Both the position numbers and the translations under genes were made by a program. This document shows, one piece after another, positions 885-29,868 of a stretch of DNA of 61,271 bases. Origin of the DNA: a virus (taxonomy: Duplodnaviria > Caudoviricetes); the IMG/VR virus record IMGVR_UViG_3300032083_000576, positions 1-61,271 of that record; one strand, given 5' to 3'. Each line of letters opens with the position of its first letter. Position 1 is the first letter of the stretch. The notes beneath the pieces were generated by a model. It saw only the letters and a program-made list of their open reading frames with translations, was not told where the DNA came from and did not search any database.

Positions 885-2774
885 ATGCCCTTACAAAAAT
901 ACATTTTTCGACCAGGAGTTAACAAAGAAGGAACTGACTATTCTAACGAGGGTGGTTGGTTTAATTCAAACCTTGTTCGATTTCGCAAAGGTCTTCCTGA
1001 AAAAATAGGTGGATGGGCAAAAGCTACTTTAAGTACATATCAATCCACAGTTAGAGCTCTTCATGCTTGGGTAGATTTATCTTTAACAAGATATTTAGGT
1101 TTAGGTGCTACATGGAAGTATTACATAAAAGAAGGAGATAACTTTTATGATATTACTCCTCTTCGAGAAACCACGTCTGCAGGCGATGTTACATTTGCAG
1201 CAACTAACGGCAGTTCAACTATTACAATTACAGACACAAACCACGGCGCAGTAACTGATGATTTTGTTACGTTTAGTGGCGCTGCTAGTTTAGGTGGGAC
1301 TGTAACCGCGACAGTTTTAAATCAAGAATATCAAATACTTTTAGTTACAGGTGTTAGTACTTATACGATTACAGCTAAAGATACTTCTGGCGCAACAGTA
1401 ACAGCTAACGGTAGCGATAGTGGTAACGGCGGAAGTTCTGTCGTAGGGGCATACCAAATTAACGTAGGACTAGATACTTATGTGGAGTCTACAGGGTGGG
1501 GAGCAGGAACTTGGGGAGCAGGAACTTGGGGCTCAGCAACAGCGATTACAGCTTCTAATCAATTACGTCTATGGTCTCATGATAATTTTGGAGAAGACCT
1601 AGTTATGAATGTACGAGCAGGTGGGGTTTTTTATTACGACATAAGTACAGCTACATTAGGAACCACTAGAGCAATACCTTTAACAAGTTTATCAGGAGCA
1701 AATCTAACACCTACGGTAGCATTACAAGTTTTAGTCAGTGACGTGGATAGACACGTTGTTTGTTTTGGCGCTGATCCAATATCAGGAAGCTCGCGATCAG
1801 GGGCAGTAGATCCTTTATTTATAGCTTGGAGCGACCAAGAAAACGTTTCTGAATGGGAGCCTTTACCAACCAATACCGCAGGTTCTTTTAGATTGTCCGC
1901 AGGATCTCAAATTATTGGAGCACTTCGAGCTAGACAAGAAACTTTAATTTGGACAGATACTGCATTGTATTCAATGACTTTTGTGGGTCAACCTTTTACA
2001 TTTGGTGTAAATTTAGTAAATGAAGGGGTTGGGTTAATATCCCCTAATGGAGCAGTTAATACTCCTAAAGGTGTTTATTGGATGGATAAAAAAGGATTTT
2101 ATACGTATTCAGGTTCTGTTCAAGATATTCCCTGTACTGTTCAGGATTATGTTTTTAGTGATTTTAATGAAGGACAAGCTTTTCAATCATTTGCCTTTGT
2201 AAATAAAGAATTCGACGAAGTAGGATGGTTTTATTGTTCCTCAAGTTCTTCGGTTATAGATAAATATGTAGTTTTTAATTATGAAGACGGAGTTTGGACT
2301 ATAGGAGATTTAACCAGAAGCTCTTGGTTAGATGAGGGAATATTTAACACCCCAATGGCTACGTATAGCACGAATGATGTGGGGTATTTATATAACCATG
2401 AAACAGGTAATGACGATGATGGTTCTCCTATGGACAATGTGTTTATAGAATCTAGTGATTTTGATTTAGGGGAAGGAGAAGAGTTTCAATCGATAAAAAG
2501 AATTATTCCTGATATAAAATTCACAGGAAGTGGAGGCACAGGTCAAACCATTAACATGGTAGTTAAAACTAGAAATTTTCCTGCAGAAAGTTTATCAACA
2601 TCTACAACAAGCGCCTGCACCAGTAGTACTTCTAAAATTGATACTAGAATTAGAGCTCGCCAAGCAGTGCTAAGAATCGAATCAGATGACGATAATAGCG
2701 AAGGAGCAAGGTTAGGAGTAGGTTTTAGAATAGGTGCTACAAGAATGGATGTACAACCTAACGGCAGACGTTAA
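885..2774 (+). CDS. Tail nozzle / packaged-DNA stabilisation protein (P22 gp10 / tubular protein B-like)
   Basis: 629 aa, beta-propeller-like; FRPGVNKEGT N-terminus, IAWSDQE, C-terminal RIGATRMDVQPNGRR. Confidence 0.7.
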   Translation: MPLQKYIFRPGVNKEGTDYSNEGGWFNSNLVRFRKGLPEKIGGWAKATLSTYQSTVRALHAWVDLSLTRYLGLGATWKYYIKEGDNFYDITPLRETTSAGDVTFAATNGSSTITITDTNHGAVTDDFVTFSGAASLGGTVTATVLNQEYQILLVTGVSTYTITAKDTSGATVTANGSDSGNGGSSVVGAYQINVGLDTYVESTGWGAGTWGAGTWGSATAITASNQLRLWSHDNFGEDLVMNVRAGGVFYYDISTATLGTTRAIPLTSLSGANLTPTVALQVLVSDVDRHVVCFGADPISGSSRSGAVDPLFIAWSDQENVSEWEPLPTNTAGSFRLSAGSQIIGALRARQETLIWTDTALYSMTFVGQPFTFGVNLVNEGVGLISPNGAVNTPKGVYWMDKKGFYTYSGSVQDIPCTVQDYVFSDFNEGQAFQSFAFVNKEFDEVGWFYCSSSSSVIDKYVVFNYEDGVWTIGDLTRSSWLDEGIFNTPMATYSTNDVGYLYNHETGNDDDGSPMDNVFIESSDFDLGEGEEFQSIKRIIPDIKFTGSGGTGQTINMVVKTRNFPAESLSTSTTSACTSSTSKIDTRIRARQAVLRIESDDDNSEGARLGVGFRIGATRMDVQPNGRR

Positions 2775-3097
2775 TGGCTAAAATATTAGAAACAAAACTT
2801 CCTATAGCTATAGGGGAAATATCCCCAGAAACATTTAATAGACTCGTTAGAGTTTTAGAACTTAGTTTAAACAAAGTCGATATAGGTGCAACACCTACGT
2901 TTAATGAAACACAACGTAATGAAAATAAATTCGAAGACGGGGATTTAATTTGGAATATAGAAACAGAACAATTACAATTATGGAACGGTCTTAAATGGGT
3001 AGATATCTATACAGGAACCGAACAAGGGGTAGAAGGCGTTGCTTTTCTTGGAGAAATTACGGTTTCAACAAACGGAGCGACAACAATATCATTGTGA
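2774..3097 (+). CDS. Hypothetical virion protein
   Basis: Coupled to the nozzle gene; GDLIWN...LQLWNGxxW fibre-like motif. Confidence 0.6.
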   Translation: MAKILETKLPIAIGEISPETFNRLVRVLELSLNKVDIGATPTFNETQRNENKFEDGDLIWNIETEQLQLWNGLKWVDIYTGTEQGVEGVAFLGEITVSTNGATTISL

Positions 3098-3540
3098 TGA
3101 ATAAAGATAAATTAATAGAAGAATTAATCAAAGACGAAGGATATAAATACGAAATATATCTAGACCACCTTGGCTACCCCACATTCGGAGTAGGTCATTT
3201 AATTTTAGAAAAAGATGAAGAATATGGAAAGCCTGTTGGTACTCCTGTTTCAGAAGAAAGAATTAAAGAATGTCTTAGTAATGATATTGAAATAATTTGT
3301 AATGAATTAAATAGAAATATGGAATGGTGGCAGGATCTAAACGATACCAGACAACGTGTGTTGGCTAATATGGCATTTAATTTAGGATTACCTAGATTAA
3401 GTAAGTTTGTTAAATTCTTAAAAGCTGTTCAAGATTCAGATTGGGAAAAAGCTTCAGAAGAAATGATGGACTCTAAATGGGCGACCCAAGTAGGGGATAG
3501 AGCAAAAAGATTAAAAATAAAAATGTTAAAAGGAGTGTAA
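3097..3540 (+). CDS. Endolysin, T4-like lysozyme (GH24)
   Basis: LIKDEG...YLDHLGYPTFGVGH (catalytic E-D-T), NMAFNLG, SKWATQVGDRA; start moved to ATG 3097 (TGATG coupling). Confidence 0.92.
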   Translation: MNKDKLIEELIKDEGYKYEIYLDHLGYPTFGVGHLILEKDEEYGKPVGTPVSEERIKECLSNDIEIICNELNRNMEWWQDLNDTRQRVLANMAFNLGLPRLSKFVKFLKAVQDSDWEKASEEMMDSKWATQVGDRAKRLKIKMLKGV

Positions 3541-3714
3541 ATGAAGGGTGTAACGCATTACAAAAGAGACGGGAGACCCTATAAAGGGGGTACTCATAAA
3601 ATGCCTAACGGAACTTTACATTCAGGGAAATCTCATGGCAAAACAAGTGAGAGATTATATCATTTTAAAGATTTAAGTAAAAAAGCTAAATTAAAAGTAA
3701 AAGGAAAAAAATAA
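3541..3714 (+). CDS. 57-aa basic His/Lys-rich protein; not in ORF track
   Basis: MKGVTHYKRDGRPYKGGTHKMPNGTLHSGKSHGK...; AAGGAG upstream. Confidence 0.75.
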   Translation: MKGVTHYKRDGRPYKGGTHKMPNGTLHSGKSHGKTSERLYHFKDLSKKAKLKVKGKK

Positions 3715-3896
3715 TGCCAAGTAAAAAAACACATAAAACTAAAGACGGCAGAACAGCTAAAAAAGGTCTTTATTACTATATAAATAAAAAGAAAGCAGAA
3801 GGCAGGAAGCCACGTAAAAAAGGAGCTAAAGGTGCTCCGACTGCTGCTGCTTTTAAACGTTCAGCTAAAACAGCTAAAAAACCTAAAAAGAAATAA
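3714..3896 (+). CDS. Small Lys-rich basic protein
   Basis: KKGLYYYINKKK...GAPTAAAFKRSAKTAKK; coupled. Confidence 0.75.
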   Translation: MPSKKTHKTKDGRTAKKGLYYYINKKKAEGRKPRKKGAKGAPTAAAFKRSAKTAKKPKKK

Positions 3897-4195
3897 TGGC
3901 TACTAAGCGCAAAGAAAAGTCTATACGACGCACTACGAAAGGAAAAGGTGCTAATTACCGTAAGACTAAATCTGGCGCGGGAATGACGGCTAAGGGTGTA
4001 AAAGCCTATAGGAAGAAAAATCCTGGATCTAAACTTAAAACAGCTGTTACAGGTAAAGTTAAAAAAGGTAGTAAAGCCGCAAAAAGAAGAAAATCTTATT
4101 GTGCAAGGTCAGCGGGACAAATGAAGAAGTTCCCTAAAGCCGCCAAAAATCCTAATTCTAGGTTGAGACAAGCAAGAAAGAGATGGAAATGTTAA
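3896..4195 (+). CDS. Basic Lys/Arg-rich protein
   Basis: RRKSYCARS...NPNSRLRQARKRWKC, a conserved phage motif. Confidence 0.8.
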   Translation: MATKRKEKSIRRTTKGKGANYRKTKSGAGMTAKGVKAYRKKNPGSKLKTAVTGKVKKGSKAAKRRKSYCARSAGQMKKFPKAAKNPNSRLRQARKRWKC

Positions 4196-4196
4196 T

Positions 4197-4625
4197 ATGT
4201 ATGAATATAGTTGCACAGTTGAAAGAGTGGTTGATGGAGATACTATCGACGTTGTGTTGGATCTTGGGTTTGATATTATGTATAAGTCTCGTGTTAGGTT
4301 ATATGGGATTGATACTCCCGAGTCACGTACTCGTGACCTGGATGAAAAGGCTAGAGGAAAAATGGCTGGGGCTTTCTTAAAAGCTGCTATTGAAAAAGGT
4401 ACTAAAGTTGTTATACAAACTGAAGTAAAAGATTCAAAAGGTAAGTATGGAAGAGTTTTAGGAAACGTTGTGGTTGACGGAGTTAATATAAATAAAAAGA
4501 TGATAGAAAGTCATTTAGCTGTTGCTTATTTTGGACAATCTAAAAACGACGTAGAAGAAGAACATTTAGTTAATAGAAATAAATTAATTGAATTAGGTAA
4601 ATTTAATCCTCAGGAGTTGTTATGA
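4197..4625 (+). CDS. Thermonuclease (SNase-like)
   Basis: RVVDGDTID, RLYGIDTPE, GKYGRVLG. Confidence 0.92.
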   Translation: MYEYSCTVERVVDGDTIDVVLDLGFDIMYKSRVRLYGIDTPESRTRDLDEKARGKMAGAFLKAAIEKGTKVVIQTEVKDSKGKYGRVLGNVVVDGVNINKKMIESHLAVAYFGQSKNDVEEEHLVNRNKLIELGKFNPQELL

Positions 4626-5098
4626 AAATAGGTGGAATATTAAAAAGTGTGGTCGGAGCGGTAGCTCCTACCCTAGGTACTGCACTAGGTGGTCCAATGG
4701 GCGGTATGGCGGCTAAAATGATTTCAGAAGTATTGGGTGTTCCTAATACTCCTAAAGCGATAGATAAAGCAATACAAGAAGCCACTCCCGAACAACTTCT
4801 CGAACTTAAAAAAGCAGAACAAGCATTTGAAATTCAAATGAAAGAGCTTAAAGTAGATGTTTTTAAGTTAGAAACAGCAGATATACAAGATGCAAGAGGT
4901 AAATTTTCTAAAGATTGGACAGCCAGAATCATGGGTATAGTTGTTGTGGGCGGTTTTATGGGCTACATATTTTTAGTCACCATCCAGCCTCCTGAGCAAA
5001 ACTCAGAGGCATTGATAAACCTTGTTCTAGGCTACCTTGGTGGTTTAGCTTCTGCGATTATAAGTTTTTATTTTGGAGCGTCTCAGAAACAAGACTAA
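4622..5098 (+). CDS. Holin-like membrane protein
   Basis: AVAPTLGTALGGPMGG N-terminus, two C-terminal TM helices ending ISFYFGAS. Confidence 0.7.
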   Translation: MKIGGILKSVVGAVAPTLGTALGGPMGGMAAKMISEVLGVPNTPKAIDKAIQEATPEQLLELKKAEQAFEIQMKELKVDVFKLETADIQDARGKFSKDWTARIMGIVVVGGFMGYIFLVTIQPPEQNSEALINLVLGYLGGLASAIISFYFGASQKQD

Positions 5099-5448
5099 TG
5101 GATCAAGCAGTAACATTTATAAACGAAGTTGGTTTTCCTATTGCAGCAGCACTAGGTTTAGGTTTCTTTATATGGAAACTTATCAATAGAATTATTGATG
5201 GTATGGAAACAAAGTTAGATGTACTAGACGAAAAAGTTGCAGTACAAATAGCAGCAATGGAAGAAAGGCTAGGGGGCAAACTAGATTCACAACATGGTAT
5301 TTTAGTAGCTTTGATAGATAGAATAAGATCTCTTGATAATGAAATTATTAGGCAAGATACTATGATCAAAACAATCCTAGGAGTTCCTAATCTTATAGAT
5401 ATAGATAAAATCGCTAAAGCGGATAGAGACGACCAACGTAAAGATTGA
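5098..5448 (+). CDS. Membrane-anchored coiled-coil protein (YvrJ-like N-terminus)
   Basis: INEVGFPIAAALGLGFFIW followed by coiled coil. Confidence 0.6.
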   Translation: MDQAVTFINEVGFPIAAALGLGFFIWKLINRIIDGMETKLDVLDEKVAVQIAAMEERLGGKLDSQHGILVALIDRIRSLDNEIIRQDTMIKTILGVPNLIDIDKIAKADRDDQRKD

Positions 5449-5915
5449 TGAACAAACATGATAATCTTTTTGCAATAATAGGTTTATCTATAGTATTACT
5501 TGTAGTAGTTCTACAACAAGTACAGGCTGATGAAATGGTACATCAGTTTAAAAGTCCTTCTTTTAACGGAGAAGGAACTTCTAGTCATTATTTAACTATA
5601 GAAAACCAAGAAGCTAATCGCAAACAAGCTATAGAAGAAGAAATACAGGCTCTTAAAGACGAAATAGAAAGAGAAGAAAATAACACAGTGGAAGCTAGGT
5701 TTATGCGCAACCTTACTTCACGAATTTATGCAAACATTGCTAGGCAAGTAGAGGCTGCATTGTTTGGAGAAGATACAAACAAAAGTGGATCTATGGAACT
5801 TGATGGAAACACGATAGATTATGAGATTACGGAAGAGGAGGTTAGAGTTACAATCACTGATGAAGACGGCAATACAACAGAAGTTATCGTACCTATTGGT
5901 GGTTTTACTTTCTAG
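5445..5915 (+). CDS. csgF: Curli assembly protein CsgF-like
   Basis: Signal peptide (VQA-DE), mature VHQFKSPSFNG...YLTIENQE resembling CsgF FxNPxFGG; C-terminal VTITDEDGNTTEVIVP; directly upstream of CsgG. Confidence 0.8.
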   Translation: MMNKHDNLFAIIGLSIVLLVVVLQQVQADEMVHQFKSPSFNGEGTSSHYLTIENQEANRKQAIEEEIQALKDEIEREENNTVEARFMRNLTSRIYANIARQVEAALFGEDTNKSGSMELDGNTIDYEITEEEVRVTITDEDGNTTEVIVPIGGFTF

Positions 5916-6660
5916 TTGTGCTTTGATGATTGATCCGCTAGAAAATAATTTACCACCAATCAAGCATATACAACCTGCTTCGATTGAGAAACTATACACT
6001 GCTTTAGCGGATGTCGAAGAGCCTTCTAGGAAACCAGTTATTTCCGTATATGCTAATGATTTTAAAGATCAAACAGGACAACGTAGATCGAATGCTAAAT
6101 ATGCAACTTTTGCTACAGCAATTACACAAGCACCGCATGCATACCTTATACGAGCACTTAAACACTCTGGGTTTTTTGAAGTAGTCGAACGAGTCGCTCT
6201 TGAATCAGTTAGTAAAGAAAGACAACTAATTCGTTCAACTCGAGAAACGTTTGACGAAAAACAAAAACTCTTACCCCTCAAATTTGGCGATATGATTATG
6301 ACAGGTGGAGTGTTATCGTATCAAGCAAATATAAGTTCTGGAGGAGCAGGGGCTAGAAATTTAGGAATAGGTTTTTCTAAACAATATAGAGAAGATATAA
6401 TTACTATTAGTTTACGAACGGTCTCAGTAAGTACGGGCAGAGTCCTTACTGAAGTGTTGGTTACTAAAACTGTTTTATCAGCTTCTTTAGATAGTGATGT
6501 TTTTAGATTTATAAGTCAGGGAACAGAGCTTATAGAGATAGAAGGAGGAAATGTTAGGAACGAGCCGATGAGCGTAGCTTTACAAATAGCTATCGAAACA
6601 GCTGTGTTAGAAACAATTAAAGAGGGTTTAGATAAAAATTATTGGAGGTTAATACAATGA
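5860..6660 (+). CDS. csgG: Curli secretion channel CsgG (lipoprotein)
   Basis: Lipobox LSSC; VYxxxFKDQTGQR, AITQ, FFEVVER, KERQLIRSTR, SGGAGARxLGIG, LRTVSVSTGRVL, NEP. Confidence 0.93.
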   Translation: MKTAIQQKLSYLLVVLLSSCALMIDPLENNLPPIKHIQPASIEKLYTALADVEEPSRKPVISVYANDFKDQTGQRRSNAKYATFATAITQAPHAYLIRALKHSGFFEVVERVALESVSKERQLIRSTRETFDEKQKLLPLKFGDMIMTGGVLSYQANISSGGAGARNLGIGFSKQYREDIITISLRTVSVSTGRVLTEVLVTKTVLSASLDSDVFRFISQGTELIEIEGGNVRNEPMSVALQIAIETAVLETIKEGLDKNYWRLIQ

Positions 6661-7370
6661 AAAAATATCTATTTATACTTATATTTTGTGCACCTATTTA
6701 CGGAGCAGATAACGAAATATTCATTGATCAAAGTTCAGGAGCATCTAATTCTAATATAGATTTAGAACAGTTAGGTTCTGGTAATATTATCGGAGGAGCC
6801 ACTGCAGCAGCAGGTTCTATGACTGATTTAAATTTAGTAGGGACAGCACTTAATTTAGATATAAATCAGATTGGCGATACAAACAAGTTTTTGGGTGATA
6901 TTGTTTCAGATTCATATACAGGGTTTTTTGAGTTTGATGGCAACAGTAATACTTTTAATATGAACACCGATAAAACAGCAACTTACGGAGCAGATTCATC
7001 AAATGTTAATGTAGACGTGACTGGAAACAGTAATACATTTACTTTAAATCAAGCCACTTCTGCCTTAGCCAGTACATTAGACTTGGATTGGATTATCAAT
7101 GGTTCTAGTAACACAATCACATCTTCGATCAATGTGGATGCTGCTACAAACTATGTCAACATAGACGGATCAGATAATGCTTTAACACATACAGCCACTG
7201 GTTATGCGGGTAATTACTTTTACCTAGACCACGACGGGGCTAATAGAACATTTAACATCACACAATCATCAACATTAGATAATGACTGGCTCAAAATACT
7301 TAGTTCTGGTACTAGCACTTCTACTGTCTGCGTCATTCAAAACGACCAAGGCACAGGCACAAGCTGTTGA
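6657..7370 (+). CDS. Secreted curlin-like beta-solenoid protein (CsgA/CsgB-like)
   Basis: GGAGGT SD; signal peptide; repeats ending in GxxN (EQLGSGN, NQIGDTN, FDGNSN, VTGNSN, INGSSN, IDGSDN); downstream of csgFG. Confidence 0.7.
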   Translation: MKKYLFILIFCAPIYGADNEIFIDQSSGASNSNIDLEQLGSGNIIGGATAAAGSMTDLNLVGTALNLDINQIGDTNKFLGDIVSDSYTGFFEFDGNSNTFNMNTDKTATYGADSSNVNVDVTGNSNTFTLNQATSALASTLDLDWIINGSSNTITSSINVDAATNYVNIDGSDNALTHTATGYAGNYFYLDHDGANRTFNITQSSTLDNDWLKILSSGTSTSTVCVIQNDQGTGTSC

Positions 7371-8400
7371 TATAGGAAGTATCAGTGAGCTAAAAGGTAA
7401 TGCTCAGGTTGTACGAGACAAGCCGTATGGCGCAGAACTATCGTTTCCTATCCAGCAAATGGATAATGTCAAAACAGAAACTGGTCGAGTCGCGATTACG
7501 TTTGCTGACGATACGATTGTTCGCGTTATGGATCATAGTAGGTTAGTTATAGATACATATATTTATGATCCTAATCCTAAAAAATCTGAGATGGCTCTTA
7601 GGTTTGCTAGTGGAACAGCAAGATTCGTAACAGGTAAATTTAATAATAAAAAGAATATAAAAATCAGTACTCCTAGTGCTGATGTGTTTGTTAGAGGCAC
7701 AGATTTTACAATTACAACAACTCCAGAAACAGGCGCTTCTTTAGTTATTTTATTGCCCGACGAGTACGGAGAATCTAGTGGGGAGATAGTTGTCGCCACA
7801 GCTATGGGGCAAGTTGTATTAAACCAACCGTATCAAGCTACAACAGCTATGACCTATAATCAAGCCCCTTCTAAACCTGTGACGTTAGATATAAGTTTAG
7901 AGTTTATAGATAACATGTTAATAGTAAACTCTCCTAATGAAAAAGATAATATAGAAGAAGAATCACAAACAGGTACTACAGCAGATTATTTAGATTTTAA
8001 TGATTTAGATGTAGATTTTTTAGCAGAAGATTTTTTAGATAACGAAGCTGATTTAACATTTACAGAACTAGATATAAATTATCTTGACGTAAACTTTCTT
8101 GAAGACTTACTTAATATACTTGATGCTTTAGCCGTAGGAGCTGAAGAAGATCAATTAAATCAAATTGCGACTGGAATAAAAATAACAGGTACACAAATAG
8201 GTCAGGACAAAGTAAGCCAAATAACAACAATTATTACAGGACAACTTATTAGTTTTAGACGAAGCGTAGGAGAAACAGTACGAATAGACCTTGACGGATC
8301 AAGTTCTTATACCTTAGTTTTGTTACAAAATGGTGTAGAAAATATAATAAAAGTTAACGGTGGTTCTTCAAATACTATAAACATAAAACAAGGAAACTGA
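7282..8400 (+). CDS. Secreted FecR-domain protein
   Basis: Signal peptide; IGSISELKGNAQVVR, DNVKT, ITFADDT, GTARFVTG, ISTPSADVFVRGTDF; acidic LDxDxL repeats in C-terminal half. Confidence 0.85.
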   Translation: MTGSKYLVLVLALLLSASFKTTKAQAQAVDIGSISELKGNAQVVRDKPYGAELSFPIQQMDNVKTETGRVAITFADDTIVRVMDHSRLVIDTYIYDPNPKKSEMALRFASGTARFVTGKFNNKKNIKISTPSADVFVRGTDFTITTTPETGASLVILLPDEYGESSGEIVVATAMGQVVLNQPYQATTAMTYNQAPSKPVTLDISLEFIDNMLIVNSPNEKDNIEEESQTGTTADYLDFNDLDVDFLAEDFLDNEADLTFTELDINYLDVNFLEDLLNILDALAVGAEEDQLNQIATGIKITGTQIGQDKVSQITTIITGQLISFRRSVGETVRIDLDGSSSYTLVLLQNGVENIIKVNGGSSNTINIKQGN

Positions 8401-10154
8401 TGAAGAAAATAGTTTTTACAATTTTATTTATAGTTTTACTTTTTCCGTTAGCGTTTCAAACAACTCCGTTAGAAGTATTAAAACTAAAAACATTTGATGC
8501 TTTTCTTCCTAAACAACAACCTTCTGGTTATTTTACAATTTTAAATATTACAGAAGAAGACATAACAAACGAGGGGGGATATCCTTTATCCAGACAGACC
8601 TTAGCACAAATACAAATTAACTTATTACGGAAAGGTGCGATAGGTGTCGGGTGGGTTGTTGCTTTTCCACAACCCGATAGATTCGGAGGAGATTTCGAAT
8701 TTATGGAAGCGCTAGGTTTTGCTCCTAGTGTGTTAGCTATGTATGAAAACGATACAGATAATTACCCACCGACCACAGGGACAGTAATTTTAGGAGAAAA
8801 TATCGGGGGGATAGAAGCTCAAGGAGTGGTACAAAACATAGACGTCTTAAAACAAAATGCGTCTCAAGGAATTGCAGTAGCTAGACCTGAAGTTGATTCT
8901 TTAGTTCGTAGATTACCTTTGTTATTAAGAACTCCTGATGGATTCGTGCCAGCTTTTGGAACAGAAGTTTTAAAAATATTAGCTGGAGCAGATACCTATG
9001 TTATTAAAACAAACGAAAATGGTTTAGAAGAAATAAGAGTAAAAGGTTTACCTTCTGTTCCTGTAGATTCTTACGGTAGAAAATGGGTAAGTTGGGTAGA
9101 TACCCCACAGACCACGTTACAAGAAATGAACGTAGAAAATAAGTTTGTTTTTGTGGGGTTTACTGCTAAAGGAATTATGCCCCAGTTAAGTACCCCTGTT
9201 GGCTATCTTGAGCCTCATAAAATACAAACCGCATTAGCCGAAAGTATTCTTATAGAAAATAGTCCATACGTACCTGATTATGCTTTAGCTGTAGAGCTTC
9301 TTATCTTTTCTGTAGTTATAAGCTTAATCTGGTTAGTTTTAAACGTATTCGGAATAACCTCTGGAATAGTATTAGCTACCCTTATTTCTTTCTTAACTGC
9401 GTTTTCTGGGCTTTATTTAATAAAAAACGGGTTATTAATAGACGTAACATGGACATTAATAGCTGGAATCTTAACAGGGACAACAGCTTTTTATATAAAC
9501 TATCGGACACAATTTAAATTACGTCAACAGATTAAAAAACAATTTGAACATTATTTAGATCCTCGCCAAGTAAAACAACTACAAAACAATCCTGAGTTAT
9601 TAAAATTAGGAGGTGAAAAAAGGTACTGTACCTTTCTGTTCACAGATGTAAGGGGATTTACAGCTATGAGCGAAAGTATGCCTCCAGAAGAAGTTACTAT
9701 AATTATGAATAAAGCATTGACTATTCAACAAAAAGTTGTACAAAAACATGGGGGCATGGTGGATAAATATATAGGCGATGCAATGATGGCTATCTTTAAC
9801 GCACCGTTAGATTTAGAAAACCATGCACATAAAGCAGTTCTTGCTGCTATAGAGATACAACAACTTATAAAAGAAGAAAATATTGGAATAGAAATCGGAG
9901 TTGGATTAAATACAGGTGACGCTGTTATTGGCAACATGGGCAGTGACACTCGTTTCGATTACACCGCTATTGGCGACGCTGTAAACACTGCGGCTAGAAT
10001 GGAGAGTAGTTGTAAGGAAGTAGGAGAAGATATAGTGATTACGGAAAACACAGCATCACAAACTCAAATAGAACTTAGACCATTAAAACCTATAAAAGTT
10101 AAGGGGAAAGAAAAAACAATTAATATATACACAGTCAATGATCTTGAAGTATAA
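8400..10154 (+). CDS. CHASE2-domain class III adenylate cyclase
   Basis: N-terminal TM, CHASE2-like region (ITEEDI...YPLSR, FPQPDR, DSLVRRLPL, TPVG), three TM helices, cyclase core FTDVRGFT, VDKYIGDAMMA, GNMGS, DYTAIGDAVNTAARME; Lys and Thr specificity residues favour ATP. Confidence 0.93.
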   Translation: MKKIVFTILFIVLLFPLAFQTTPLEVLKLKTFDAFLPKQQPSGYFTILNITEEDITNEGGYPLSRQTLAQIQINLLRKGAIGVGWVVAFPQPDRFGGDFEFMEALGFAPSVLAMYENDTDNYPPTTGTVILGENIGGIEAQGVVQNIDVLKQNASQGIAVARPEVDSLVRRLPLLLRTPDGFVPAFGTEVLKILAGADTYVIKTNENGLEEIRVKGLPSVPVDSYGRKWVSWVDTPQTTLQEMNVENKFVFVGFTAKGIMPQLSTPVGYLEPHKIQTALAESILIENSPYVPDYALAVELLIFSVVISLIWLVLNVFGITSGIVLATLISFLTAFSGLYLIKNGLLIDVTWTLIAGILTGTTAFYINYRTQFKLRQQIKKQFEHYLDPRQVKQLQNNPELLKLGGEKRYCTFLFTDVRGFTAMSESMPPEEVTIIMNKALTIQQKVVQKHGGMVDKYIGDAMMAIFNAPLDLENHAHKAVLAAIEIQQLIKEENIGIEIGVGLNTGDAVIGNMGSDTRFDYTAIGDAVNTAARMESSCKEVGEDIVITENTASQTQIELRPLKPIKVKGKEKTINIYTVNDLEV

Positions 10155-10229
10155 TCATTTTATCAGTTCTTTACTGCAGCCTTCGGGAACGGCTTTATCC
10201 GCTAATAATGAATAAAATAAGGAAGGGGA

Positions 10230-10724
10230 ATGAGTAATTTTTTTGTAGTGGGATTACCTAGAAGCCGTACAGCTTGGTTGGCTAATTTCTTAACATACGA
10301 AAATAAATTCTGCTTTCACGAAGGCATCAACGGTTGTTCTACCCTAAAAGAATACAAAAACAAACTTGGGGACAATAAAGGAGACAGTTGTACTGCGTTA
10401 ATGTTATTAAATTTAAACAAAGAATTCCCTGAAGCTCCTGTAGTTGTTATTGAAACAGATACAAAAAGAGCTATAGAATTTTCTAAAGAAATTTACGGTA
10501 AAGACTTAACTCAAGAGATGAATGTATTAAATGAACAAATGAAGTTTATAAAAGGATTAAGGATAAGGTTAGAAAATTTAGATAATTCTCTTGAAGAAAT
10601 ATGGACATATTTAATCGGAACCTCGTACAATAAAGAAAGAGGGGATTTATTAAAAAATATGAACATCCAAACAAATAATTTTAATTACGACATAAAAGCT
10701 GCAGGAGAATTGTTATGCCGATAA
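10230..10724 (+). CDS. Sulfotransferase-like P-loop protein
   Basis: FFVVGLPRSRTAWLANFL resembles the PAPS-binding loop; CFHE motif. Confidence 0.6.
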   Translation: MSNFFVVGLPRSRTAWLANFLTYENKFCFHEGINGCSTLKEYKNKLGDNKGDSCTALMLLNLNKEFPEAPVVVIETDTKRAIEFSKEIYGKDLTQEMNVLNEQMKFIKGLRIRLENLDNSLEEIWTYLIGTSYNKERGDLLKNMNIQTNNFNYDIKAAGELLCR

Positions 10725-11797
10725 CTGCTGCATTAATAGCGGGAGGAAGTGCTATTCTTGGGAACCTAGTAGCTCCTGAACCCAAAGGCTCTAGTGGTGG
10801 GGTTTCTTCGTCAACTCAATCAGGAAACTCAGGATTAAATTATACACCTGTGGGATTAGAATCTTTAGAAATTACTCCTTTCGAATACAAACTTTTAAAC
10901 GAGATGTTTAAAGAACAACAAGAACCCCAAGAAATGATGTACGGTGGTCCTTTATATGCAAAAGGTGGGGGCGATTTAAATAAAGCACTTTTAGGGGCGG
11001 CAGGTTTAAGTATGATTCCAGGAACATTAGGAGATTTTGGAAGAACACTTTCAGGAGGATTAACTTCTATGGAGGAACAAGAGCCTAAAGGATTAATTTC
11101 TTTATTATTTGAACATTTTACTAAAGATGATGAAGAAGACGATAAAGAAGAATCTATCGTTCCTGGTCTACAAAACGGTGGTCCGCTATATTTAGCAGAA
11201 GGTGATGATATTTATAGACAAGAAGTAATAGCGCAAAGACCTGAAGGAATTATGTCTGTTGATAATGACATAGAACCAGACTTAAATATACCTGATCCTA
11301 AACCCACCGTTACAGATTTTAAAAAAGAATTAGACGACATGCTTAGACGTCAATTAATGCAAGATATAGTAATGAACGAAATACCTGATCTTGTTTCTGT
11401 ACTTATGTCGAATAGAAATCAAAAAGCTAATGTTAGTGGCAGAGGAAACATAGTTCCAGGAAGTGGACGTGGAAGTGGGAGATCTATATCTAATCAAGAT
11501 TTTAGAGTCGCAGGAACTACTGTGAATCCTTTCTCCTATAGAAGATTAAAAAACGGTGGTACAATGGTAGATGGAGTATTAGATAGACCTATGTTTGCGG
11601 CAAATTATATGCCTAACGGAGGGGAGATGGAAGGTCCAGGTGGTCCAAAAGACGATTTAATACCTGTGATGGCTAGTAATGGAGAGTTTATGTTATCTAA
11701 AGCAGCAGTTGATCAAGCAGGTGGCGGCAATCATTCTGAAGGAATTGCGATGTTAGAAGCTTTTAACGAATTAGGGAATCAAAGATATGGCAGATAG
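10715..11797 (+). CDS. Putative internal virion protein
   Basis: C-terminal GPGGPKDDLIPVMASNGEFMLSKAAV motif seen in virion proteins; repeated hydrophobic-x-x-GG. Confidence 0.6.
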   Translation: MPITAALIAGGSAILGNLVAPEPKGSSGGVSSSTQSGNSGLNYTPVGLESLEITPFEYKLLNEMFKEQQEPQEMMYGGPLYAKGGGDLNKALLGAAGLSMIPGTLGDFGRTLSGGLTSMEEQEPKGLISLLFEHFTKDDEEDDKEESIVPGLQNGGPLYLAEGDDIYRQEVIAQRPEGIMSVDNDIEPDLNIPDPKPTVTDFKKELDDMLRRQLMQDIVMNEIPDLVSVLMSNRNQKANVSGRGNIVPGSGRGSGRSISNQDFRVAGTTVNPFSYRRLKNGGTMVDGVLDRPMFAANYMPNGGEMEGPGGPKDDLIPVMASNGEFMLSKAAVDQAGGGNHSEGIAMLEAFNELGNQRYGR

Positions 11798-26861: not shown

Positions 26862-27713
26862 ATGTCATCTATAAGAAAAAAATTAAAAGTTAATGAAAAC
26901 GATAGCAAAAATACTCGTATGGATTTAGCTTCTGCAGGAGTCCTAGGAAACTGGAGACCTGATGAATTAGCTCATATGAGTCGATTCGATAAAATTGCGA
27001 GTCTTGCTATAGAAGAGGCTAAATTGTTAGGCAGACCATTAGATACCTTAGAAATAGGTTGTGGTGAGTGTTGGTCTTTACGTGTGCTTTATAAAGCGTA
27101 CGTCGTAAAAAAGTCTGATATTATTAGTTCGTATAAAGGATACGATATTGATCCTGCCTGTGAACTAGATAATAGGTTCTGGTCTAACGGCGGTGGAGAA
27201 CTAAAAGATTCTACTTGGTTTAAGAATTTCAATGGCGAAATACGTATACAAGATTTAACAACTAATCCGATATTAGATATACCTGACGAAAGTATAGATT
27301 TCTTTTGGTCTACTGAAGTTATAGAACACATGGGTAGAGAATTTGTTCCACCATGGCTTGATGAAGCTGCAAGGGTTATGAGACCTGATGCTATCGCTTA
27401 TATATCAACACCCAACCATGACGGCTCTAACGATAAGTTGCCCGAGGATCATGTCTACGAATGGGGTTTTCAAGAATTAAAAGAAGAACTAGAAAGAAAC
27501 TTCCGTATAGAAGCAGTAACAGGTACGTTTATGCAAATGCCTAAATTAAAGAAAGCTATGTCTCAAGTAACTGAAATGAATGCTAGAGGGTGGAGCATAG
27601 AACAACTTTTAATGTTACAAGAACGTTTCGGTAAACAGTTTTTAAGAATGGCGGCAGCTGTATTCTATCCAGAGATAGCAAACAACTGCGCGTGGAGGCT
27701 CGTTAAGAAGTGA
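26862..27713 (+). CDS. Class I SAM-dependent methyltransferase
   Basis: LEIGCG motif I, GYDID, STEVIEH, ISTPN, HVYEW. Confidence 0.85.
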   Translation: MSSIRKKLKVNENDSKNTRMDLASAGVLGNWRPDELAHMSRFDKIASLAIEEAKLLGRPLDTLEIGCGECWSLRVLYKAYVVKKSDIISSYKGYDIDPACELDNRFWSNGGGELKDSTWFKNFNGEIRIQDLTTNPILDIPDESIDFFWSTEVIEHMGREFVPPWLDEAARVMRPDAIAYISTPNHDGSNDKLPEDHVYEWGFQELKEELERNFRIEAVTGTFMQMPKLKKAMSQVTEMNARGWSIEQLLMLQERFGKQFLRMAAAVFYPEIANNCAWRLVKK

Positions 27714-28594
27714 TTCACGAACTACGAGAAAGACTCGATACCTACTTTTATTGGATACACGAACGGGAAACTATTCGTTTAAATAAAGAAGTAGAACAAA
27801 AACCACCACCTTGGACGGATGATTCTATCTTACAAAAGTTTAAGTTTTGTCAAGTCTTTCGAGAAGATGATAGAACAACACGTTGGTTTAGAACTCATAT
27901 CCGAGACCCTTACCGAGACGACCCTGAGGTATTAATGGCTACGGTAATCTTCCGTTGGTTTAATTACATAGAAACAGGAAGGACTTTAGTAAAGAATAAA
28001 CTACACCTAGAGTGGGATAGAAAGAAAGCTATCGAAGAAATAACAAAACAAAATAAATGGGTAACAGGTGCTTATATTGTTAAGACACCTAACCGCATGG
28101 ATAAAGTAACAGGGGTGGCTGAATGTATATCCCATATGTGGGGAGATAGAGAAAAGCTAGTAGAAAAAATACTCGCGACTAATTCATTAGAAAAATCTTG
28201 GAACATATTAAGAGATTATCCGTACATGGGTCCATTCATGGCTTATGAGGTCATAACGGATTTAAGACATACTTATTTATTACGAGATGCTGAAGATATA
28301 CTAACTTGGGCTAATGCTGGTCCAGGAGCCATGCGGGGACTTAATAGGCTCGCGGGCAGAGAACTTGGGTTCTGTAAACGCAGTCACCCGTGGAACGAAG
28401 AAATGAGAAACTTATGGGAAATATCTCGTGAAAAACTCAACCCTAACTTAATCGATTTAGATAAGTTTGAAATGAGAGAGATAGAAGGAGGACTTTGTGA
28501 ATTTGATAAATACTCTAGAATTCTAAATGAAGAGGGAAGAACACGAAGTGTATATAAGTATAACGAAGATCTACCTTTGGTAGAAGAAATATAG
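27710..28594 (+). CDS. aGPT-Pplase1 / 5-hmdU DNA kinase helical-domain protein
   Basis: ERExIR...PWTDDxILxxFKFCxVFREDDR, FRWFN, GPFMAYEVITDL, GPGAMRGL, EGGLCEFDKY. Confidence 0.85.
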   Translation: MIHELRERLDTYFYWIHERETIRLNKEVEQKPPPWTDDSILQKFKFCQVFREDDRTTRWFRTHIRDPYRDDPEVLMATVIFRWFNYIETGRTLVKNKLHLEWDRKKAIEEITKQNKWVTGAYIVKTPNRMDKVTGVAECISHMWGDREKLVEKILATNSLEKSWNILRDYPYMGPFMAYEVITDLRHTYLLRDAEDILTWANAGPGAMRGLNRLAGRELGFCKRSHPWNEEMRNLWEISREKLNPNLIDLDKFEMREIEGGLCEFDKYSRILNEEGRTRSVYKYNEDLPLVEEI

Positions 28595-28606
28595 AAAGGA
28601 GAAAAG

Positions 28607-28828
28607 ATGAGCGGATATAAAGATATAGCTATAGATTTATTAGAACAATACGGGGATGTAGTAGATATATATTACACACAGTTTTTAGAGGTGGCTTTCT
28701 TTTTAAAAGTACCTGCAAGCTACGAAATGGCTTTAGGTTTCTTAAAAAAGAAACTACCACAACTTACAGACGAACAATTACATTTCCTAATTAACGAAAT
28801 AACAAGCGCATACCAAGATACGATATGA
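28607..28828 (+). CDS. Hypothetical protein
   Basis: AGAAAGGAG SD; 73 aa. Confidence 0.7.
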   Translation: MSGYKDIAIDLLEQYGDVVDIYYTQFLEVAFFLKVPASYEMALGFLKKKLPQLTDEQLHFLINEITSAYQDTI

Positions 28829-29868
28829 AAGTAATTCGAGCAAGAAACGTAAACGACGCTCTACTATTGGGATTAGATTTATTCCAAGACCCTCGTAACT
28901 TTCGTGAACAAGAAAGCAGGAACGGAACAACTTACGAGGCATTAGAACCTGTAACAACAGTATATGAAAAACCATGGGAAAGAGTATTGCTTCTTAAGAT
29001 ACGAGACGCTAATCCATTTTTTCATTTTATAGAGGGCTTATGGATGTTGGCAGGTCGTAAAGATTTAGCGCCATTAACTCGATATGTTAAATCTATGGAG
29101 AACTTTTCTGACGACGGAGAAACTCTATGGGGAGCCTACGGTTGGCGATGGAGAGATTATTTTCATAAAGACCAAATTACTATGGTTATTGATATGTTAC
29201 GTAAAAACCAAGACGAAAGACGATGCGTATTACAGATGTGGGATGCTAATAAAGACCTTGCACGAGCTAGTAAAGACGTGCCATGTAATACGAATATCTA
29301 TTTTAAGATACGGGATAAAAAACTACATATGACTGTTTGTAATCGTTCTAACGATATGCTTTGGGGAGCTTACGGTGCTAACGCAGTTCATATGTCTATG
29401 TTACAAGAATATATCGCAGGACATCTTGAAGTCGAAATAGGAACATATAGACAAATTAGTGATAGTTTTCACGTATACCATAACGAAGTATGGGAAAGGG
29501 TAAAAGGTTTAGAAATAGACCCATGGACTTATTCTAATTTAAAGAACCCTTACGATACGCTAGAAGGGATCGTATATACCAACTTTATAACTAACCCTAA
29601 AACTTTTGATCGGGAGTTAGATCGATTCTTTAATATGCCTCCTGAGGATATAGATTTATATCAAGACGGGTGGGAAAATGCTGCTTTTGTAGATATAGCA
29701 TTACCCATGGTAAGGACGTTTAACGCACATAAAAACAAAGATTACATACAAGCATATCGAGAAGTTATGAAAATTCTACCAAACGACTGGATGACAGCTT
29801 GTTTTGATTGGATTAAAAAGAGAGATTTATCTTGGACACTTAATAACGAAGGAGGAAACAATGGATAA
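28825..29868 (+). CDS. Thymidylate-synthase-fold enzyme, probable dUMP hydroxymethylase
   Basis: ESRNG, NPFFH, GAYG, RRCVLQMWD, DVPCN (catalytic Cys), RSNDMLWGAYGAN (Asn at the dUMP-specificity position), SFHVY; next to a 5hmdU-kinase-like gene. Confidence 0.85.
   Translation: MKVIRARNVNDALLLGLDLFQDPRNFREQESRNGTTYEALEPVTTVYEKPWERVLLLKIRDANPFFHFIEGLWMLAGRKDLAPLTRYVKSMENFSDDGETLWGAYGWRWRDYFHKDQITMVIDMLRKNQDERRCVLQMWDANKDLARASKDVPCNTNIYFKIRDKKLHMTVCNRSNDMLWGAYGANAVHMSMLQEYIAGHLEVEIGTYRQISDSFHVYHNEVWERVKGLEIDPWTYSNLKNPYDTLEGIVYTNFITNPKTFDRELDRFFNMPPEDIDLYQDGWENAAFVDIALPMVRTFNAHKNKDYIQAYREVMKILPNDWMTACFDWIKKRDLSWTLNNEGGNNG

Follow-up and report, generated by a model that had tools for sequence, protein, structure and literature searches.

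A pelagiphage curli module with a FecR-fold protein and a CHASE2 adenylate cyclase: a candidate periplasmic sensor

Curli secretion genes in phages of SAR11-type bacteria are accompanied by genes of less obvious purpose, and we examined one such cassette in the IMG/VR virus record IMGVR_UViG_3300032083_000576. The window, by which we mean the whole stretch of 61,271 bases that was analysed, is rated 100% complete by CheckV. Between positions 5098 and 10154 it encodes a small membrane protein (u116), CsgF, CsgG, a curlin-like subunit, a FecR-fold protein and an adenylate cyclase with a CHASE2 sensor domain (Table 1). An original prediction made from the sequence had placed five of these genes in a trans-envelope circuit leading to the synthesis of cyclic AMP (cAMP). 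We lean towards reading the region as a copy of the published pelagiphage curli module, FecR and cyclase included, that works as a periplasmic sensor making cAMP.

Genes and products of the cassette

Five consecutive, overlapping open reading frames (ORFs) lie on the plus strand as predicted (5445-5915, 5821-6660, 6642-7370, 7282-8400 and 8400-10154), with small corrections to their start codons. The probable csgF start is ATG 5448, in a TGATG shared with the stop codon of the upstream ORF. For csgG, ATG 5860 is the probable start, giving a hydrophobic N-terminus that terminates in LLSSC, a leader ending in cysteine, and a 56-nucleotide (nt) overlap with csgF; from the first ATG (5821) that overlap would become 95 nt. 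The curlin-like gene probably begins at ATG 6657, in an ATGA that overlaps csgG by 4 nt, the FecR gene at 7282, within an 89-nt overlap, and the cyclase gene at 8400, in a TGATG with a 1-nt overlap. The junction sequences bear out all four overlaps as originally quoted, and protein alignments indicate that both reading frames of the 89-nt overlap are conserved in relatives. Pfam, homology and fold matches likewise uphold the five gene identities. The span proposed at the time, from 5445, took in these genes and left out a sixth conserved one, u116. An N-terminal hydrophobic segment is found in all five proteins by a hydropathy scan, which is not a dedicated signal-peptide predictor.

Table 1. 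Positions of the cassette genes, two flanking genes and the sister cassette discussed in the text
Feature	Position	Strand	Basis or description
Phage lysozyme	2995-3540		Pfam
Phage membrane protein, 158 residues	4622-5098		phrog_1544; Gly-rich N-terminus, two C-terminal hydrophobic segments
Small single-pass membrane protein u116, 116 residues	5098-5448	+	Hydrophobic segment at residues 11-29
CsgF-like secreted protein	5448-5915	+	Pfam CsgF 1.5e-19, profile positions 3-132 of 132
CsgG outer-membrane lipoprotein channel	5860-6660	+	Pfam CsgG 7.7e-49
Curlin-like beta-solenoid subunit	6657-7370	+	N-terminal hydrophobic leader, conserved C-terminal Cys pair
Exported FecR-fold protein	7282-8400	+	Pfam FecR 1.9e-11; conserved acidic middle, C-terminal beta region
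CHASE2 sensor fused to class III adenylate cyclase	8400-10154	+	Pfam CHASE2, Guanylate_cyc
Sister cassette in myophage-like contigs	L093:2234-12386; L183:1545-12467; also L166, L178, L189, L192, L199, L226

The CsgF ORF also matches phrog_35372 (3.8e-39). It matches E. coli CsgF chains only weakly (E 0.14); the alignment sets VHQFKSPSFNGEG against MTFQFRNPNFGGN and places its N-terminal CsgG-binding segment opposite that of the E. coli protein. CsgG aligns with E. coli CsgG structures across residues 7-264 (E 2.3e-40) and is 42.5% identical to the CsgG of phage HTVC008M. Pfam scans of 93 window ORFs found no CsgE, CsgC or CsgD family, in agreement with the original reading. The window shares with E. 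coli curli CsgG, CsgF and a Q/N-G-x-x-N repeat beta-solenoid with CsgA as its best structural match. It differs in lacking CsgE, CsgC and CsgD, in having one subunit gene, whose repeats are longer and fall below the Pfam curlin threshold, and in having a FecR protein and a cyclase built into the operon.

Neither Pfam nor PHROG yields a hit for the curlin-like ORF itself. Its homologues include curlin-repeat proteins in HTVC008M (28% identity, E 6e-16) and Melnitz (27% identity, E 4e-13). For the Pfam curlin repeat, whose cut-off is 20.7 bits, the Melnitz homologue scores 26.0 bits and passes, and the first one from HTVC008M, at 9.7 bits, does not. Across 32 relatives, the eight G-x-x-N motifs are mostly invariant, C237 is invariant and C225 almost so. 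An AlphaFold model built on the alignment with these relatives is an all-beta solenoid with a predicted local distance difference test score (pLDDT) of 86.4. Its top VIA-align match is the CsgA of Pontibacter korlensis (8c50_A; Z 17.7, 196 residues aligned, 18% identity, rmsd 8.7). A Foldseek search of the model against the PDB gave nothing at E <= 0.001, and the sequence itself gave chance-level rows only. The GxxN beta-solenoid that had been proposed for this ORF is therefore recovered in the model, with CsgA as the best structural match and others close.

In the FecR protein, the fold begins directly behind a cleavable-looking N-terminal leader, without a cytoplasmic anti-sigma part. Residues 58-211 of the model match the C-terminal cell-surface signalling domain of PupR (6ovk_R; Z 15.4, rmsd 2.5, 134 residues aligned). 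The protein thus shares the periplasmic signalling-domain fold of the FecR/PupR anti-sigma regulators. Those regulators also possess a membrane anchor and a cytoplasmic anti-sigma domain, and act with an extracytoplasmic function (ECF) sigma factor and a TonB-dependent transducer; the Pfam scans found neither a sigma factor nor a TonB-dependent receptor family in the window. A second match joins model residues 28-122 to 5IX9 (Z 6.5, rmsd 2.4, 28% identity, 72 residues aligned of a 76-residue chain; Foldseek E 0.012). This structure shows the N-terminal, periplasmic domain of MpIBP, an RTX adhesin. The domain was proposed to plug a TolC-like pore and so retain the adhesin on the cell, and the LapA retention module was modelled with it as template (PMC5550230; bioRxiv 10.1101/198937). 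The FecR N-terminal region superposes on this whole 76-residue plug domain, with a modest fold score and a moderately confident model. Unlike LapA and MpIBP, the window protein is a small one exported by Sec, the pore encoded with it is CsgG and not TolC-like, and no LapG- or LapD-like genes accompany the cassette. Searching PDB sequences with the FecR alignment profile gave 0 hits at E <= 10. A complex prediction of FecR (27-372) with CHASE2 (22-296) from separate alignments scored 0.01 against a mark of 0.32, which speaks neither for nor against binding.

CsgG-linked FecR proteins end in alternating hydrophobic-x-hydrophobic-x-Q strands (window 8290-8400, and loci L169 and L218). Their ends, TINIKQGN in the window and VTIIQTD in a divergent clade, resemble those of the curlin-like subunits. 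We dropped the idea of a curlin-like C-terminal strand in FecR as an impression only: the profile-profile match, which pairs the C-termini GSSNTINIKQG and GANRTFNITQS, covers 11 columns (probability 2.6%, E 0.018).

The last gene encodes a protein in which hydrophobic segments at residues 4-22 and 296-314 (hydropathy scan) bracket a CHASE2 domain (Pfam 2.4e-23, residues 12-307), followed by a Guanylate_cyc domain (5.9e-23, residues 409-579). It matches solved bacterial cyclases with E values of 1.6e-32 to 5.7e-27. Class III cyclases use two metal-binding Asp residues, a substrate-specifying Lys with Thr or Ser (the class IIIb pattern), and an Asn and Arg that act on the transition state. In 35 of 35 relatives D416, K456, D460, N529 and R533 are invariant, and position 522 holds T (22 relatives) or S (13 relatives). 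To judge from this conservation, the catalytic motifs are intact, as had been claimed. Since the class IIIb rule pairs Lys with Thr or Ser, ATP is the predicted substrate.

Published precedent and viral linkage

This cassette is already known: it was published for SAR11 phages in 2022, including for the podovirus group to which the window belongs, and the window holds a further copy. Wittmers et al. (mSystems; PMC9599517) described the order HK-CsgF-CsgG-CsgA/B-FecR-(second CsgA/B)-AC, HK being a gene labelled histidine kinase and AC the cyclase, in nine HTVC023P-type genomes and in pelagimyophages. In their account the HK gene is single or sometimes double and a second CsgA/B gene is often present. 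They detected the module at all 65 GOV2.0 stations, with transcripts in Pacific metatranscriptomes, and proposed its transfer between phage families (PMC9599517). Earlier papers dealt with CsgF and CsgG only (PMC7029224, PMC9004378), and cyclase and FecR have 0 occurrences in the main text of PMC9004378. The deposited annotations of HTVC008M and Melnitz have the same cassette gene order. The background given with the original prediction was thus right about csgF and csgG in marine myophages and missed that FecR and the cyclase had been reported from this podovirus group (PMC9599517).

The window and the published type VIII secretion (T8SS) region agree in phage group, genes and order, and both lack CsgE and CsgD. 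There are two differences. The window copy is without the second curlin-repeat gene between FecR and cyclase; among viral relatives, a gene-sized gap separates the two in 8 of 66 loci. Moreover, the position labelled "HK" is occupied in the window by a 116-residue single-pass membrane protein that has no kinase domain and no conserved His.

We surveyed viral contigs with the cyclase and found at least 593 relatives (593 of 600 pattern matches). Linkage was counted in the best 80 of these, 59-98% identical, with denominators that comprise the loci with enough flank. Of 46 such loci, 44 have FecR upstream and co-oriented with the cyclase, and the remaining two have it inverted. The curlin-like gene (33/34), CsgG (29/29) and CsgF (26/26) follow in the same order. 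Conserved co-occurrence of FecR and cyclase with csgF and csgG, on which the original prediction had staked its circuit, is found in nearly all of these viral loci with enough flank.

The sixth gene is equally constant. In all 21 viral loci with enough flank, u116 is the gene directly before csgF, and homologues precede csgF in Melnitz (two copies, E 1e-13) and HTVC008M (E 8e-11). Among 50,697 records of a phage-isolate collection it matches only 6, all of them cassette-bearing. Its alignment contains the conserved motif L72..R75..N81..I84-R85. We found no Pfam or NCBIfam family for u116. Neither 5098-5448 nor the preceding ORF, 4622-5098 (116 and 158 residues), has a kinase family in Pfam to E 10 or in NCBIfam, and the invariant or nearly invariant columns of 25 u116 homologues contain no His. 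An Atlas feature search returned unnamed viral clusters only, with named ones below the 0.9 mark. u116 is probably the gene labelled "histidine kinase" in PMC9599517 and, on these sequence features, that label looks wrong. We conclude that u116 is a sixth conserved gene of the cassette, recognised as such by comparing sequences and not described in this role in the original prediction.

Related cyclases beside other export systems

We then compared the best 80 loci by cyclase in a genome collection, setting apart 9 phage-like contigs from the 71 others. In the 71, the cyclase is 28-38% identical to the phage enzyme, and CsgG, CsgF, the curlin-like gene and u116 are all absent within 10 kb. A FecR-domain ORF, always large, neighbours the cyclase in 14 of the 71. 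The two such neighbours that were scanned, in L091 and L098, are adhesin-like proteins of 2678 and 2714 residues with an N-terminal FecR domain, the first with Big_9, cadherin-like and RTX repeats and the second with FG-GAP, Big_9 and cadherin-like repeats. Published bacterial pairs include a FecR-domain protein next to a CHASE2 sensor in the Burkholderia 'BiofilmReg' operon (PMC5192318) and CyaD1 (CHASE2) with SMc02177 (FecR-domain) in Sinorhizobium meliloti (PMC5498481). The association of CHASE2 sensors with FecR genes in bacteria, given as background with the original prediction, therefore holds. In these pairs, as in the window, an exported FecR-domain protein adjoins a membrane CHASE2 sensor. 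The 'BiofilmReg' output is a histidine kinase, however, unlike the window's cyclase, and the bacterial FecR-domain neighbours are giant adhesin-like proteins at loci that have no csg genes of this kind within 10 kb.

The nine contigs set apart (L084-L089, L092, L093 and L105) lie in metagenome-assembled genomes (MAGs) labelled Vicingus, Parvibaculum, Pelagibacter, Neomarinimicrobiota, Nisaea, Flavobacteriaceae and Rickettsiales, and contain cassette genes or the flanking phage membrane protein. Each of the three that were checked has phage genes, among them terminase, portal and head genes in L086 and phage-type exonuclease and QueD genes in L092. The nine look like phage DNA binned into MAGs and could mislead searches for bacterial origins. 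One, an 11-kb contig in a Nisaea MAG (L088:99-11047), has the full six-gene cassette with a cyclase 38% identical to that of the window, adjoining a tyrosine integrase, a Cas4-like exonuclease and a Sak4-like protein. Because an integrase stands beside this cassette, the module may also ride on temperate phage.

Another of these contigs, L093, led us to a second clade of viral cyclases, whose 306 relatives lie on contigs as long as 137 kb. It includes a sister cassette with a different export system (Table 1). The gene order is a FecR-headed protein of 1200-1700 residues, a TolC-like protein, a protein of 250-270 residues, a short HlyD-family protein, the CHASE2 cyclase and two copies of u116. 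The FecR-headed protein is without a Sec leader and has cadherin domains or, in L226, RTX repeats with a serralysin-type C-terminal domain. Viral and bacterial RTX/cadherin adhesins that adjoin CHASE2 cyclases have the FecR domain at the N-terminus and no Sec leader. Of 25 second-clade loci with at least 1500 nt upstream, 15 have TolC/HlyD, 8 have CsgFG, 2 have both and 0 have neither; in the CsgFG type, CsgF, CsgG, curlin and FecR are placed divergently from the cyclase. A u116 homologue follows the cyclase in 59 of 80 second-clade loci. One contig (L169:1-10533) combines both export systems with two CHASE2 cyclases. TolC/HlyD accompany cyclase 1, after which an inverted FecR (740 residues), a curlin-like protein (372 residues), CsgG (434 residues) and CsgF face cyclase 2. 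L170:3-7839 begins inside cyclase 1, and the Csg block and both cyclases are visible. TolC, HlyD and type I secretion (T1SS) are absent from the main text of PMC9599517 and PMC7029224, and the sister cassette was not found in the main text of the three pelagiphage papers (PMC9599517, PMC7029224, PMC9004378). A literature search found no publication joining TolC, FecR and adenylate cyclase in a phage.

In phages, the FecR/CHASE2 cyclase pair thus accompanies two distinct export systems, a finding that restricts the range of hypotheses. Together, the sister cassette and the 5IX9-like fold of the FecR model suggest that a surface fibre, or its tether, has the FecR domain as its periplasmic end, which the CHASE2 cyclase would monitor. 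The sister cassettes and the fold match lend the idea of trans-envelope sensing indirect comparative support.

A role in iron was raised by Wittmers et al. (PMC9599517), in which the pore imports iron or other nutrients and FecR is a regulator of the iron-citrate type. The absence of a CsgE gate from 93 window ORFs (Pfam) fits an import channel. The FecR protein, however, has the periplasmic FecR/PupR-type fold only, with no cytoplasmic anti-sigma part, and the same scans turned up neither a sigma factor nor a TonB-dependent transducer nor any siderophore gene. In sister loci, moreover, the FecR domain heads RTX/cadherin adhesins, which points to secretion or retention rather than iron sensing. 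We consider import highly improbable.

The fibre alone might be the function, with FecR and the cyclase as loosely associated passengers. Aggregation ("sibling capture") and a superinfection shield have both been put forward (PMC7029224, PMC9599517), and the curlin-like subunit is both conserved and shaped as a solenoid. FecR and the cyclase are nonetheless tightly, translationally coupled to the csg genes via overlapping stop and start codons, hardly any locus examined lacks them, and in other phages the cyclase follows a different export system. In Melnitz cultures, moreover, Buchholz et al. observed no clumping (PMC9004378). A fibre with mere passengers is, in our judgement, unlikely.

A proposed sensor, its output and its phage setting

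We favour, with some reserve, a sensor built on the curli module (5098-10154). After infection, Sec would export CsgG, CsgF, the curlin-like subunit and the FecR-fold protein. CsgG capped by CsgF would form an outer-membrane channel, through which the curlin-like subunit would exit and perhaps polymerise at the cell surface. The FecR-fold protein would remain at least partly periplasmic and form a sensor with the periplasmic CHASE2 domain, its output being cAMP in the cytoplasm. u116 would be an accessory of this sensing or secretion unit and not a histidine kinase.

Several observations weigh against this proposal. The curlin-like protein has no match to the Pfam curlin repeat Curlin_rpt (PF07012) even at E 10. 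Unrelated beta-helices match its model at Z 15-17, about 1-3 Z below CsgA, and the CsgA rmsd is high, so that a curlin-type solenoid is the best but a non-exclusive reading. The window has no CsgE-like gate (Pfam scans, 93 ORFs). Only the N-terminal half of the FecR model is confident; its C-terminal half is of low confidence and the overall pLDDT is 60.1. The surveyed viral loci are close relatives rather than independent samples, and the linkage counts therefore show retention, not independent origins. Finally, no cyclic nucleotide monophosphate (cNMP)-binding protein occurs among the window ORFs (Pfam, 93 ORFs), and a cNMP-binding domain is absent from 29 of 30 relatives of G001, a MAG labelled Candidatus Pelagibacter. 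These relatives are incomplete genome samples, and Pelagibacter is the presumed, unproven host of the window phage.

In the same 30 relatives, a Crp-type helix-turn-helix above the family cut-off is absent from 29, and a class III cyclase (other cyclase classes lay outside the search) and CsgG are absent from all 30. G001 itself contains at least one phage contig, and its only class III cyclase and only CsgG sit there. With no recognisable cAMP receptor in the phage or in 29 of 30 relatives, the signal would be one without a known reader. The rewiring of host cAMP-CRP control envisaged in the original prediction fares poorly on these genomes: 29 of 30 lack the cNMP-binding domain and 29 of 30 the Crp-type helix-turn-helix, which makes a CRP-based output in the presumed hosts unlikely.

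G001 also encodes two ABC exporter-type proteins of about 1000 residues with an N-terminal cNMP-binding domain (L244:1-1830, minus strand; L245:1351-3255, plus strand), one of which has a C39 peptidase-like domain as well. Since 29 of 30 relatives are without a cNMP-binding domain, these two loci may be atypical or contamination. For the same reason, and because G001 contains phage DNA, we dropped host cNMP-gated ABC exporters as a general cAMP reader.

A bolder version of the sensor proposal makes FecR a periplasmic plug or tether of the secreted fibre, akin to the LapA/MpIBP retention module, whose state the CHASE2 cyclase would read; the two would belong to a portable, secretion-coupled cAMP sensor that can be mounted on curli or on TolC/HlyD export. 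The portable set would be the FecR domain, the CHASE2 cyclase and usually u116, and the fibre would be either a curlin-like protein or a FecR-headed RTX/cadherin adhesin. Because 29 of 30 G001 relatives have no CRP or other cNMP-binding domain, cAMP would here act on an unrecognised receptor. We regard this version as doubtful, though worth pursuing.

The cassette could instead serve lysis or egress, with the CsgG(F) pore, perhaps together with u116, permeabilising or depolarising the envelope and the cyclase setting the timing. Buchholz et al. proposed that CsgGF of Melnitz is a gated lysis-timing pore (PMC9004378). The original prediction had likewise placed the cassette beside the lysis genes. 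This is right only in part: a lysozyme gene is nearby, about 1.6 kb upstream of u116, but it lies about 1.9 kb from csgF, with other ORFs between. A lysozyme homologue stands directly upstream of the u116 homologue in L036, L059 and L065, and within the sequence available 7 of the 80 viral loci include a lysozyme. The nearest named Atlas clusters of u116 are holin-BhlA and Mu releasin, at 0.86-0.88 below the 0.9 mark and hence leads only. CsgG is an outer-membrane and not an inner-membrane channel, however, and the conserved curlin-like subunit and FecR protein would be left unexplained. Moreover, HTVC023P, HTVC027P and 023Pt_psg01, which are lytic isolates or complete genomes, have no match to CsgG, FecR, the cyclase or u116, and no recognised lysin adjoins the cassette in the myophages HTVC008M and Melnitz. 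A lysis programme therefore seems to us distinctly unlikely, and we retain the sensor on the curli module as the preferred reading.

Few cells in the ocean are as abundant as those of SAR11-type bacteria, which, to our knowledge, encode no curli system. A phage-supplied pore, fibre and second-messenger source could thus alter aggregation, superinfection or lysis at a very large ecological scale, a point already made in 2022 (PMC9599517). To the known cassette we add the sixth gene u116, the TolC/HlyD sister cassette, the plug-like FecR fold and the missing CRP in presumed hosts. The last three are leads and leave the class of finding unchanged.

In order, the interval between lysozyme and csgF contains three small basic ORFs, a nuclease, ORF 4622-5098 and u116. 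The three ORFs (window 3541-4195; 57, 60 and 99 residues) follow one another between lysozyme and nuclease and are very rich in Lys and Arg; the third matches DUF6321. Homologues of ORF 4622-5098 are widespread (129 phage records). In the best 80 viral loci, such a homologue precedes the cassette in 3, an arrangement shared with the window, but follows the cyclase in 27. This position on either side indicates that relatives differ in where the cassette is inserted with respect to the ORF. ORF 4622-5098 is a flank marker and not a cassette member. Scans of 2700-10900 gave 33 promoter-like sites (27.0 +/- 5.4 in shuffled sequence) and 4 terminator-like sites (3.5 +/- 1.7); with both counts at shuffle level, no transcription unit is definable there.

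The large terminase of the window is 57% identical to that of phage 023Pt_psg01, 52% to that of HTVC027P and 51% to that of HTVC023P. Replication, DNA hypermodification and head genes are consistent with the HTVC023P-type group, and, with the CheckV rating, we take the window to be a complete genome of an HTVC023P-type podovirus. Near-identical DNA to window 4600-10300 occurs in 20 seawater or marine metagenome runs from 7 coded studies, and 11 rows contain at least half of the sampled words; no RNA run was among these matches. Its presence in the runs of 7 studies indicates that the phage genotype is recurrent in marine samples. At 26862-29868 the window has a cluster of genes for a methyltransferase, a 5-hydroxymethyldeoxyuridine (5-hmdU) DNA kinase helical-domain protein and a thymidylate synthase homologue, which fits the thymidine hypermodification genes known in some HTVC023P-type clades (PMC9599517).

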